A stretch of DNA of 23,473 nucleotides from Aquificaceae bacterium (GCA_039630345.1 JBCNVD010000032.1:1-23473); one strand, 5' to 3'. Counted from the stretch's first letter, positions 19,286 to 23,316 are shown. Numbers and translations: made by a program. Notes: generated by a model from the sequence alone, not told the origin.

Positions 19286-19310
19286 CTCAAAAACCCTCGC
19301 AAAGCCCTAT

Positions 19311-19339
19311 ATTTTAAATTTTTTATTTTTATTTGTCAA
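19311..19339 (-). promoter_or_regulatory. sigma70-type promoter for the rplN (spc) operon: TTGACA-N17-TAAAAT
   Basis: Minus-strand -35 TTGACA at 19334-19339 (overlapping the trmD stop), a 17-nt AT-only spacer, and -10 TAAAAT at 19311-19316. Confidence 0.8.
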
Positions 19340-20106
19340 GAATCCGCGCTTCGCGCGTTTAAGAATCTCCTCCCCTCAACTTCAAACCAGCTTTCAAACT
19401 CCTCTCCCCTCTTTAAAGCCTCTATTATAGAGCTCTCAAGGGCAGATAGTTTTTCAGGCACATCCTGAGGTCTATATTTGAGAGTTCTGTCAATCCTTTG
19501 CCACAGTATCCAGAGCTTTATCAGCCCGTGGTTTCCCGAGAGCAAAACCTCTGGCACTTTCATGGATTCAAAAATCGCCGGGCGGGTGTAAATAGGCGCA
19601 CCAACCCATCTGTTAAAAGAGTCTTCTTCCAGACTTCTATATTCGGATAAAACATCTGGCAACAGTCTTGCAACCCCTTCTATAATCGTCATTGCAAATA
19701 TTTCTCCCCCGGAAAGCACAAAATTACCCAAAGAGAGTTCTTGAGTTGCTATTTTTCGCACCCTCTCATCAAGGCCCTGATACCTTCCGCAAATAATTGC
19801 TAAGTTTTGCATTTTACTAAAACTTATCAGGTCTTTTTGCTCCAGATGTCTTGCCCATGGCTGTGGCAATATAATATGGGTGTTTTCAGGCAAGGATCTT
19901 ACTGCCTTAAAAACCACATCCGGCTTAATCACCATACCGGGAAGACCCCCAAATGGTTTGTCATCAACCTGAGATTTTTCATCAAACTTTCTTAAATCTA
20001 CAGGAAAGACCTCAAGAGCTTTTATTTTTATAGCCTTTTGCACCATTCCATAGGCGCAAAAGTCGCTTATCATCTTTGGAAAAATGGTTAAAACAAATAT
20101 CTTCAC
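19336..20106 (-). CDS. trmD: tRNA (guanine37-N1)-methyltransferase TrmD
   Basis: LTIFP, VDDKPFGG.PGMV, ICGRY.G.DERV, SLG.FVLSGGE, YTRP and VPEVLLSGNH. GTG start overlaps the recombinase TGA. Confidence 0.96.
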   Translation of the reverse strand: MKIFVLTIFPKMISDFCAYGMVQKAIKIKALEVFPVDLRKFDEKSQVDDKPFGGLPGMVIKPDVVFKAVRSLPENTHIILPQPWARHLEQKDLISFSKMQNLAIICGRYQGLDERVRKIATQELSLGNFVLSGGEIFAMTIIEGVARLLPDVLSEYRSLEEDSFNRWVGAPIYTRPAIFESMKVPEVLLSGNHGLIKLWILWQRIDRTLKYRPQDVPEKLSALESSIIEALKRGEEFESWFEVEGRRFLNARSADS

Positions 20107-20957
20107 GAGAGAAAGCTCTCTACTATTGCGCGAACTCTTTCTTCACTGTATCTGTAGTAAACATCTATGGTCGTTCTTATGTTGCTATGACCTGCGAGCT
20201 CTTTAACAACCTCTGCGGGAAACCCCATGTTTATTAAGTTTGTTATGTAAGTGTGTCTAAAACTATGAACAGAAAAGCCAAGCCCGAGCCTTCTTGAGAG
20301 TCTGTTTGTAAAAACCTGCAAAGAGCCCGGATTTACGCTCAGGTTTTCTTCGAAGTTTTCAAGCCAGATATCAAGATGCTCATAAAGCCTATAAGTTTGC
20401 TCTTTGTCAGAGAGTATTATAGGAACGGTTCTCTCTTTTTTTCTTTTGGTTGCTTCAGCGCTTAAATGTAGCCAGTAAGTCCCTCCTTGTTTTTTAAAGC
20501 TATTTTTACTCAAGCTTGCATATTCAGAAAGTCTAATGCCGGAACTTAGAAGGATTTTATAAACCTTTTCGTATCTTGTGTTTACAACCGCTTTTAAAAT
20601 AGCGGTTATTTCCTGCTGTGTTAATGCCTTTGGCTTCCTGAGAGGTCTACTTGGCAAAAGCTCTTCTCTGACCTCCTCTATGGCATCCTGAAGTTCAAAG
20701 AACTTCTCCTTCGGAAAGAGACCTCTTCTTTGCAAAAATGTATAAAAGTGCTTTATGGCGGATAGATGCGTAAGCATCGAGGAGACCCCGACCGAAGACC
20801 TGTCAACATAGAGAAAAATATCCGCGGATGTTATATCAAGAGGCGCTTTGCCGGTATCTTTAAGAAAGTGAGTGATGACATTGTGGTAAGTTAGCGTGGT
20901 TCTTTGGCTCTTGCTCTTTGAAAGAGAGCGAAGCCACAGCTCAACTTCAAGCTCCAT
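20103..20957 (-). CDS. Xer-type tyrosine recombinase, catalytically intact
   Basis: N-terminal core-binding domain (SQRT..TY...S.IKHFY.FL). Catalytic R (SGIRLSE), K (TKRKKER), HxxR (HSFRH), H (LAGH) and Y (TTIDVY). 284 aa with no arm-binding domain. Confidence 0.92.
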   Translation of the reverse strand: MELEVELWLRSLSKSKSQRTTLTYHNVITHFLKDTGKAPLDITSADIFLYVDRSSVGVSSMLTHLSAIKHFYTFLQRRGLFPKEKFFELQDAIEEVREELLPSRPLRKPKALTQQEITAILKAVVNTRYEKVYKILLSSGIRLSEYASLSKNSFKKQGGTYWLHLSAEATKRKKERTVPIILSDKEQTYRLYEHLDIWLENFEENLSVNPGSLQVFTNRLSRRLGLGFSVHSFRHTYITNLINMGFPAEVVKELAGHSNIRTTIDVYYRYSEERVRAIVESFLS

Positions 20958-20966
20958 AGTTTTAAT

Positions 20967-21578
20967 TTAAGTGCTTTCCCCTTGCTTAAGTTTTGCTATT
21001 TCAAGTTCCTTTGCCAAAATAACCTGCTCTTTCTCAAGTAGCTTTTTCTGGCATTCTATCTCAGCCCTCTCAAGGGCTTGCTCGAGTTTTTTTATCTTCT
21101 CACTTAGAGAGCTTGTTTGCTCGGCAAATTGTTTGCTCTCCTCTTTGCTCTTTTCGAGTTCTTTTTCAAGACTTAAATAATCCTGTTTTATCTTCTCTAG
21201 CTCTTTTTTCAAAATCAAAATCTCACTCTCTTTTAGAGCAAGCAAAGTCTGAAGACTTGAGAGCTCATAAAGTAGCTTCTCTTTTTGCTCCTGGGATTGC
21301 ATAAGAGCACTGATGTATGTGGCAATTAGCTTGCCCTCTAAACTGCTCCTGAGCTCTTCGATGTTTTTTTCAATCGATTGTCTGGATTGTTTGAGATTTT
21401 CTTCCATAGAGCAAAGATGCTCCCACTCGTCCTGAGATAGATATACATACCATATCCCGTCTGACTCCTTTGCCCCTTTTAATGTCCCTGCCCTTATTCG
21501 GTTTTTGACAGTGTTTAAAGACACCTGAGCCCTTAGCGCGTATTCTGTAGCCCTGACTTTTATTGTGTCATTAGTCAT
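20967..21578 (-). CDS. Hypothetical DNA-binding protein: excisionase/MerR-like winged HTH plus long coiled coil
   Basis: N-terminus ATEYA....VS.NTV.NRIR.G.LKG.K..G.WYV fits Xis/HTH_17-like domains. The rest is E/K/L/Q-rich and heptad-like. AGGAGG SD at 21589-21594. Confidence 0.75.
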   Translation of the reverse strand: MTNDTIKVRATEYALRAQVSLNTVKNRIRAGTLKGAKESDGIWYVYLSQDEWEHLCSMEENLKQSRQSIEKNIEELRSSLEGKLIATYISALMQSQEQKEKLLYELSSLQTLLALKESEILILKKELEKIKQDYLSLEKELEKSKEESKQFAEQTSSLSEKIKKLEQALERAEIECQKKLLEKEQVILAKELEIAKLKQGEST

Positions 21579-21606
21579 AACTGCCTTTCCTCCTGCTTTT
21601 GACGAT

Positions 21607-21635
21607 ATTTTACTCTATGACTTGACTTGTGTCAA
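21607..21635 (-). promoter_or_regulatory. sigma70-type promoter TTGACA-N17-TAAAAT for the HTH-xer-trmD unit, with overlapping palindrome TTGAC-N4-GTCAA
   Basis: -35 at 21630-21635 and -10 at 21607-21612 on the minus strand, 17-nt spacing. Palindrome at 21622-21635. Confidence 0.75.
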
Positions 21636-21667
21636 TTTGTATCAATAGCATTTGTAGCTTACCCTGC

Positions 21668-21695
21668 TGTTAATATAATTACCATTATCCTAACG
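21668..21695. other. dif-like tyrosine-recombinase site: TGTTAATATAA-TTACCA-TTATCCTAACG
   Basis: 11-6-11 geometry with the ATAA-N6-TTAT core of bacterial and archaeal dif sites. Arms are inverted repeats at 8 of 11 positions. Non-coding, about 0.7 kb from the Xer gene. Confidence 0.65.
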
Positions 21696-21705
21696 CAACA
21701 CTCTT

Positions 21706-21745
21706 CGGGATATAAAGGGATATAACGAGACATATCGGGAAATTG
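21706..21745. repeat. Four tandem imperfect 10-bp repeats (CGGGATATAA, AGGGATATAA, CGAGACATAT, CGGGAAATTG)
   Basis: Read directly from the sequence. The first two units are 9/10 identical and the later units decay. Confidence 0.6.
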
Positions 21746-21949: not shown

Positions 21950-22830
21950 AGTATGAGAAAAAGAGAAGCTTATCTAAAATATGCAAGTATAGAGGCAACA
22001 GGAAAGTCCATCTTTTGAAAGTCAACTCTTATAGGCAAAGGGGCACAGAGACTTTCATACAGCACTTCAAAGGAAGTCTCCGAGCGTTTCTTTGAGAAGG
22101 AGAAGGAATAAAAACCCACGAAGCTAAGACCTCAGGGCACAGGAGAAGAAACAAGCGTCCACAACTGGGCAGAAACAAAAGTAAGCTTGAGAGGATGGAG
22201 ACCACCTCTGAGACCTAAGAGTCTCAAGAAAATGCCTCTATACATAACAAAAACTTCGGAGCTGAAGAAACAGATAGAGAGCTTAGGTAGAATAATGCCA
22301 ACAAGATGGAGATTGGATTACGAGTTTAAGAGCTCGGTGGAATATAGGCTATCAGGTGGAAAGATACCTACCGACCCTTTAGCTTATCTGTGTAAGCAAA
22401 GTAGTTGACAAGTTTTAGCTTTATATGGGGCAGGTAAATAATCTTGGGCGTTTATATTGGAACGTTCTGAAGAGGTTATACGAGGCAAACGTTACAAGTC
22501 CTGTATGGAAGACAAGGAAAGGCAAGGATAAGGACATGAGAGAAAGTAGGACGAAGAGAACAGCCTACCAAAACCTGAAGCAAGCGAGACTTGCCGTAAT
22601 TTCCGCCCTGAAGTACAACCACTAAGAGAAGAGGATTGTCTGGATGCATTGACGGAGGAATATAAGCGACTCAGGAAGGAGTACTGGTACAAGAGGGAAT
22701 ACATTACCTATCACTACGACACTTACCGCAAGGAATAGGAGCTTAGAAAGGGCGGTCAGAACTTTGTATTATATCCATAACAAACGGGCTATCTATAGAA
22801 GAATGCCTATATCCTTTACGCAAGACTATG
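21950..22830 (+). pseudogene. Decayed coding remnant, possibly a DDE (rve-type) transposase; boundaries approximate
   Basis: Purine-rich coding-like plus strand broken by many stops and frameshifts. The fragment YQNLKQARLAV....YNH resembles the integrase-core C-terminal helix of IS3/IS481/Mu-like transposases. Confidence 0.3.
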
Positions 22831-23055: not shown

Positions 23056-23316
23056 ATGGAAGTGCGAGTAAATCTCACTCAACACTTCAAGGACAAGTGG
23101 GAAGAAAGGAAGACATTTATGGAAAGCCAAATAGTGGAGTATGTTGTTAACCCTGATTTGGTGTTGGATGACCCTGACTTTCCTAACAGAAAATGGCATT
23201 TGAAACGAGTGGGGGAAAGATGCTTGAAGGTAGTAGTAGAACAAGAAGGAAATAAATTAATACTTATAACTGCTTACTTTGATAGAACTTTGAGGAGGAA
23301 AGGATTGTGCGGATAA
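23056..23316 (+). CDS. DUF4258-like (RelE/BrnT-like fold) putative toxin
   Basis: 86 aa with LTQHFKDKW.ER...V.NPD...LKVVVE......LITAYFD. Overlaps a DUF2283-like gene. Confidence 0.72.
   Translation: MEVRVNLTQHFKDKWEERKTFMESQIVEYVVNPDLVLDDPDFPNRKWHLKRVGERCLKVVVEQEGNKLILITAYFDRTLRRKGLCG

Follow-up and report, generated by a model that had tools for sequence, protein, structure and literature searches.

The direction and place of dimer resolution without FtsK is the question addressed by the Aquificaceae system that we describe here. The locus lies in a stretch of 23,473 nucleotides from an Aquificaceae genome (referred to as the window; source assembly G000), in which an earlier note had seen a candidate self-contained recombination module formed by a dif-like site, phased repeats, an HTH-coiled-coil protein and a single Xer recombinase. 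Our main reading, to which we assign a probability of roughly 0.55, is an FtsK-free dimer resolution by a single Xer recombinase at dif, together with a RacA/Par/RocS-like tether acting in cis.

The recombinase, the HTH ORF, the promoter, the 28-mer and the repeats were all located where they had been claimed, and the overlap of the recombinase stop with the trmD start as well as the 9-nt gap to the HTH ORF were borne out:

19336-20106, minus strand: trmD, its start overlapping the recombinase stop at 20103-20106
20103-20957, minus strand: Xer-type tyrosine recombinase, 284 aa (Pfam PF00589 and PF02899, catalytic residues, orthology)
20967-21578, minus strand: winged-HTH (wHTH)-coiled-coil ORF, 203 aa (structure model, weak Foldseek matches)
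21579-21667, minus strand: spacer of 89 bp with promoter and TGAY-core repeats (repeat counts against shuffles)
21607-21635, minus strand: sigma-70-type promoter TTGACA-17-TAAAAT (score 11/12)
21622-21635: palindrome TTGAC-n4-GTCAA, overlapping the −35 box of this promoter
21668-21695, no strand: dif-like 28-mer, an 11-6-11 inverted repeat whose far arm is degenerate in this genome
21696-23473, no strand: decayed mobile-type DNA past the dif-like site, ending with a DUF4258 gene and an ORF cut by the contig end
21706-21745, plus strand: four phased 10-bp repeats (period-10 scan of the genome)
23056-23316: DUF4258 gene (Pfam), its partner ORF truncated at the contig end

A partial spc/alpha ribosomal operon, rplN first, was observed directly after trmD (window 19286-19335); in genome G001 the gene after trmD differs from the one in the window.

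A resident Xer-type recombinase of the Aquificaceae

The recombinase consists of core-binding and catalytic domains only, and none of the catalytic residues R142, K171, H231, R234, H257 and Y267 varies among the 36 aligned sequences. It is encoded by the sole PF00589 gene of the source assembly (96% complete), which puts the number of Xer paralogues there at one, a count that the earlier note had proposed to make. In 33 of 36 Aquificaceae genomes we found an xer orthologue, one per genome and with 37-79% identity; the three genomes lacking it are only 66-76% complete. No orthologue was found in two sister families (24 genomes). trmD lies directly after xer in 22 of 30 loci, two of the other eight being cut by contig ends.

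The recombinase scored under every curated Xer cut-off tested (XerA, XerC, XerD and XerS), with 97.3 bits against a cut-off of 220 for the XerA profile NF040815 and 28.5 bits against 267 for the XerS profile. When 1.84 billion proteins were searched with a profile, scores dropped steeply beyond the Aquificaceae, and the top cluster outside the family (E 8.6e-30) had members named from Thermococci. The closest PDB match was P. abyssi XerA (E 4e-14). A tree with XerC/D/S/H/A and phage integrases had also been proposed. In our tree of 45 proteins, the 30 Aquificaceae orthologues formed one clade (100/99) with mostly monophyletic genera, separate from plasmid integrases and from the sister-family Xer, which groups with XerC/XerD; this tree has long branches and contains no XerA, XerH, XerS or XerL rows. 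The sister-family Xer genes are mostly situated behind a ubiX-like gene (L097-L112), likewise without FtsK, and no convincing site was found within about 2.5 kb of them.

Judged from these comparisons, the recombinase is present as one orthologue that was inherited vertically and forms its own Aquificaceae clade. In similarity it comes closest to archaeal XerA, with an archaeal origin as a possible lead. Features of a prophage or ICE integrase were missing, as the range is not patchy, there is no extra arm-binding domain and one site is present at up to 3 mismatches. Together with its being the only tyrosine recombinase of the assembly and with the mostly monophyletic genera, the presence in 33 of 36 genomes upholds the earlier suggestion of a resident recombinase instead of a prophage integrase.

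One dif-like site in genomes in which FtsK was not found

The site consensus TGTTAAYATAA-n6-TTATRTTAACA was derived from the relatives. In the 1.16-Mb source assembly, the 28-mer is the only match to this consensus at up to 3 mismatches (reversed control 0). At up to 2 mismatches, the consensus matched 28 of 36 Aquificaceae genomes, again with a reversed control of 0. Dropping G014 and G029, in which the sole match lies inside a flagellar gene, leaves an intergenic site in 26 of 36 relatives, which confirms the claim of a dif-like 28-mer. The matches inside the flagellar gene (G004, G014, G022 and G029) were regarded as chance and rejected as sites; the second pattern matches in G028 and the G050 matches were left out of examination. 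In five xer-bearing genomes (89-99% complete, multi-contig) no site was found at 3 mismatches, and in the sister families only 2 of 24 genomes had matches to the pattern, AT-rich and with 1-2 mismatches. Site and xer orthologue occupy the same taxonomic range. With 28 bp, an 11-6-11 build and one copy per chromosome, the site has the make-up of XerCD-type sites. G000 yielded no second dif half of the kind that an inserted element would leave.

A scan for exact sites in 185,579 GTDB species genomes gave 38 loci. Among these, 24 were of the Aquificaceae type, with a wHTH gene in 21 cases, an RHH (ribbon-helix-helix) gene in one, a position between two RHH genes in one and a broken RHH gene in one. 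The other 14 are intergenic and belong to other phyla, one of them lying directly before a tyrosine recombinase. In a Peribacteraceae locus (L135:566-1528), the same perfect palindrome is found 11 bp before a tyrosine recombinase gene. The identical palindromes at these 14 loci and the position upstream of a promoter could be taken to mean that the palindrome is a transcription-factor operator and no recombination site. We give this hardly any credence, given that there is one copy per genome, that it precedes unrelated proteins or none, that it has an 11-6-11 build with a variable centre, that its range matches that of the recombinase and that variable mobile DNA lies alongside. We consider it highly likely that the recombinase resolves chromosome dimers at the 28-bp site.

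Furthermore, we searched for FtsK and HerA, as the earlier note had suggested. The FtsK gamma domain (PF09397) was found in none of 61 genomes, a search in which the positive controls scored in 8 of 14 cases. The FtsK motor profile PF01580 gave partial matches only, up to position 108 of 221. By inspection, the best such match in G000 is a HerA-like protein of 682 aa (G000:C38:32781-34829), in which a phospholipase-D-like N-terminus is fused to a HerA-like ATPase.

Strand bias was sampled in six complete genomes and gave a signal in G011 only (permutation p < 0.001, fourfold sites), the other five showing no replichore signal. On G011:C1 the inferred origin is at about 1,186 kb, the skew inversion at about 441 kb and the site at 361 kb, that is, about 169 degrees from the inferred origin and 80 kb from the inversion. 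This single genome fits a terminus-region site that need not coincide with the inversion. The distance to dnaA was dropped as a terminus test because it ranges from 7 to 765 kb across 10 complete genomes, and dnaA of G011 lies about 370 kb away from the inferred origin.

The view of a family without ParB was dropped as well. TIGR00180 (ParB) gave nothing above cut-off in 37 Aquificaceae genomes, and ParB_N domains were present in 25 of 41, so that another segregation system may exist. DivIVA was not found in G000. On contig C29 of G000 (about 22320-22520), an AT-rich stretch precedes seven TGTGACAA/TTGTCAC boxes, after which come a tRNA-like sequence and minC-minD-like genes. This box array is a candidate replication origin or second array; its paired box pattern was not found in 5 relatives.

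The site is linked to a DNA-binding gene and not to xer

The wHTH-coiled-coil protein is predicted to consist of a wHTH (residues 1-48) and a single long coiled-coil helix (49-202; model pLDDT 91.7). Foldseek matched it only weakly to BldC, Xis, RacA and P2 Cox (E > 0.1 throughout). A VIA-align search and a PDB sequence search returned only generic coiled coils and barely probed the head. Pfam gave no DUF536 match. DUF3972 and HTH_17 are look-alikes that serve as leads only. The wHTH proteins end in charged residues and have no aromatic C-terminal tail.

A wHTH gene was detected in 19 of 36 relatives. It adjoins an intact xer in 10 of them and an xer remnant in one (G007), and it is far off in 8. 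At the G007 locus (L031; G007:C6:59577-60690), site and wHTH gene are followed by a broken xer, and an intact xer lies 10 kb off before trmD. Among the 18 loci in which DNA upstream of the wHTH gene is available, the site precedes the wHTH start by 84-97 bp in 17, even where xer is distant. The exception is G002, in which the wHTH gene is inverted 0.9 kb away and a TGAYA-rich stretch is still beside the site. Of the proposed synteny of HTH, xer, trmD and the 28-mer, the linkage between site and wHTH gene therefore holds, while the one between wHTH gene and intact xer holds in only 10 of 19 genomes. The site travels with the DNA-binding gene and not with xer; the idea of a self-contained module whose HTH protein is a dedicated activator is not supported.

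The stretch between site and gene is rich in short repeats. TGAYA occurs 76 times in 17 wHTH spacers, compared to a shuffle mean of 8.9, 6 copies on the far side of the site and 3 copies in 6 RHH spacers. Conversely, YAMTAC occurs 14 times in the 6 RHH spacers and once in the 17 wHTH spacers. These motifs were picked in the very spacers that were counted, the −35 box accounts for one copy and the genomes are related, which limits how the counts can be read. The spacer of the window has two exact TGAYA copies plus variants. The hexamer TTGACA is present in 17 of 17 wHTH spacers; although the promoter of the window scores 11/12, its region holds 4 promoter-like matches against a shuffled mean of 3.9. 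We infer that the TGAY array is an operator or a centromere-like array for the wHTH protein, which likely binds it and regulates its own gene.

An RHH-coiled-coil gene follows the site at a distance of 98-105 bp in genera g6 and g9 (6 of 6). The RHH protein is unrelated to the wHTH protein and replaces it in these 6 genomes, and complete RHH-coiled-coil proteins end in a basic-aromatic tail of the KKRRWFF type. A dif-linked wHTH gene and a dif-linked RHH gene were never seen together in one genome, and no RHH remnant was found in G000. In G015 and G036 the site is bare, with no DNA-binding gene adjoining, and in G025 and L154 there is only a broken convergent RHH gene that points at the site. 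At the level of sequence, the neighbour of the site is exchangeable, being RHH in two genera and absent in some lineages. In the recombinase tree, the wHTH-bearing genera g4 and g11 are nested together with g5, g6 and g9; the ancestor thus probably had the wHTH cassette, which was replaced or lost later.

These findings bear on the role of the wHTH protein, for which activator, directionality factor and tether had been put forward. A dedicated activator touching the recombinase, in the manner of FtsK-gamma or XafT, would agree with the likely co-transcription (in the window and in 10 relatives from 5 genera) and with FtsK not being found. We nevertheless regard it as very improbable: no wHTH gene was detected in 17 of 36 relatives, 14 of which carry xer, the wHTH gene is unlinked from xer in 9 of 19 genomes, and a non-homologous protein takes its place in six. 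Bare sites in two genomes moreover make an essential dedicated activator unlikely. Among the proposed roles it is the tether that fits best.

Probable entry of mobile DNA at the site

The four 10-bp repeats, which had been counted as part of the module, are real, as nowhere else in the genome does a period-10 stretch score as high as at 21706-21745, the sole place reaching 21 of 30 matches. They are not a conserved part, since the unit was found beside none of 25 relative sites and the conserved array is another one, located between the site and the start codon of the HTH gene. One contig of run X1, possibly from the source sample, shares just 21695-21742 and has different flanks. The four repeats are likely part of mobile DNA that abuts the site. 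The DUF4258 gene and its partner at the far end of the window have 69-73% nucleotide identity to the same pair on L083 and L116, two of the mobile-looking contigs that carry RHH relatives.

On mobile-looking contigs we found RHH relatives; a degenerate site with 3-5 mismatches precedes 3 of the 6 copies examined by 118-125 bp, and the other 3 have no upstream site. An RHH homologue is also present on the Aquifex plasmid record NC_001880.1. L116 (G022:C58) is 7.1 kb in size and carries a 741-aa ORF without Pfam match, a site, an RHH gene, the DUF4258 pair and a second RHH gene; it is a candidate small plasmid relying on the host recombinase. In L118 (1020-2035), one perfect site is flanked on both sides by divergent RHH-coiled-coil genes, each with its own short repeats, an arrangement that may be a crossover product. 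We consider it likely that the cassette originated from plasmid stability modules and that the site is a point of entry for mobile DNA. A more far-reaching version, which we put forward tentatively, is that exchangeable dif-tether cassettes have replaced the control by FtsK/KOPS, that any self-encoded coiled-coil protein which binds DNA and has its own repeats next to dif could fill the part, that anchoring to the membrane or division plane licenses resolution and that chromosome and plasmids swap cassettes by recombination at the site.

In plasmids of the cer/psi type, accessory proteins are part of the system, with ArcA as an alternative to ArgR. The wHTH protein could act as such an accessory factor or as an Xis-like directionality factor, its coiled coil bridging two array-bound sites and restricting recombination to resolution. 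The array is indeed one-sided and at a fixed distance, the fold is Xis/BldC-like (weak matches), the cassette on G022:C58 is present with no recombinase among the genes listed there, and the L118 cassettes flank one site on both sides as a crossover product would. However, the 6-bp centre of the site was seen in both orientations relative to the neighbouring gene, and bare chromosomal sites argue against a strict need. Topological filters are known from small supercoiled plasmids and are not known to work on whole chromosomes. This explanation appears rather improbable to us.

Proposed mechanism

In the mechanism that we propose, four recombinase copies would bind two sites and swap strands over the 6-bp centre, as in archaeal XerA; this step is deduced from the site architecture and the catalytic residues. 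On binding to the TGAY array, the wHTH protein would shut down its own promoter and form oligomers by way of its coiled coil, like RacA, pSK1 Par or RocS. The dif region would thereby be positioned for segregation or synapsis, which would replace the spatial role of FtsK/KOPS. By analogy, the best single role for the wHTH protein is that of placing the locus, in the way in which RacA, Par, RocS and RicO place DNA, and it is on this role that our overall estimate is placed. Counting against it are the lack of a membrane tail in the wHTH protein, the failure to find DivIVA in G000 and the weakness of the fold matches to RacA and BldC.

The linkage of site and gene could also be passive, because the gap between site and promoter is just 20-35 bp. 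Xer/dif would then act alone, and its neighbour would be an autoregulated, Par-like plasmid-cassette gene that happens to lie beside dif. The bare sites in G015 and G036 agree with this, as do the repeats, which overlap the promoter like operators, and the recombination by P. abyssi XerA without a partner in vitro, according to the accessible text of PMC2958812. On the other hand, a like spacing is seen for both of the unrelated DNA-binding folds and again on the mobile contigs, the repeats of G002 were kept beside the site after the gene had moved, and the HTH-xer junction was broken repeatedly whereas the site-array junction was not. We therefore consider passive neighbourhood unlikely, although it deserves more weight than an accessory factor, and favour the tether.

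Comparison with known systems

A published account of the Aquificaceae system was not found, and unseen supplements or closed journals may mention these recombinases. The string 'Aquif' is absent from the main texts of PMC3025954 (and its two supplements), PMC5357621, PMC9765430, PMC2958812, PMC8371274 and PMC8138268.

In XerCD/dif/FtsK there are two recombinase paralogues and the FtsK translocase, whereas here there is one recombinase and FtsK was not found. XerS/difSL, XerH/difH and XerL of the Legionellales likewise use one recombinase (PMC5357621, PMC9765430). As far as the accessible parts of the same sources go, they also resemble the Aquificaceae system in that the site adjoins the gene in part of the family and mobile DNA lies beside the site; for XerH and XerL this likeness is drawn from descriptions and not from sequences. 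XerS, in the accounts available, depends on FtsK and acts on a 31-bp difSL with an 11-bp centre, compared to the 6-bp centre in Aquificaceae, where FtsK was not found.

Plasmid cer/psi sites resemble the locus in combining a core with a stretch on one side to which proteins bind, and in being FtsK-independent. They use host PepA and ArgR on about 180 bp (PMC5357621). In the Aquificaceae, the gene is linked and exchangeable, and the stretch, which lies on the chromosome itself, measures about 90-125 bp.

RacA/Par/RocS-type proteins have a three-part plan that includes a MerR-type wHTH and a long coiled coil, as outlined in the available portion of PMC11500499. The wHTH protein shares with RacA, pSK1 Par, RocS and RicO the long coiled coil, as predicted, and repeats in cis (PMC11500499, 10.64898/2026.03.06.710092, as far as accessible); its modelled N-terminal topology would fit a MerR-type wHTH, with the RacA, BldC and Xis matches all at E > 0.1. 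These four proteins act on origins, plasmid centromeres or the nucleoid, and a link to dif is absent from the available descriptions. The C-terminal amphipathic membrane helix of RocS/DUF536 is lacking in the wHTH protein. The basic-aromatic tail of the RHH substitute resembles a membrane anchor, but the RHH fold differs from that of RacA, Par and RocS.

In its presumed operation, the system resembles archaeal XerA/dif, which, in the accessible text of PMC2958812 and PMC5357621, also has a single short recombinase, a near-symmetric 11-6-11 site in one copy, no FtsK and a site that is not exactly opposite the origin (here seen in G011 only). Repeats flanking archaeal dif were merely suggested as possible partner-binding sites in the part of PMC2958812 available. 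Unlike archaeal XerA, the Aquificaceae system is bacterial, scores under the XerA cut-off and has a coiled-coil gene and an array beside the site. Its recombinase and site are defined, and nature offers three states (wHTH, RHH and bare) in thermophiles, so that it could be studied with purified parts; it would also connect work on single-protein segregation tethers with that on site-specific recombination. Judged by its genes and site, the Aquificaceae system is one that would work like archaeal XerA/dif and yet falls short of the XerA profile cut-off and of the features that define XerCD and XerS.
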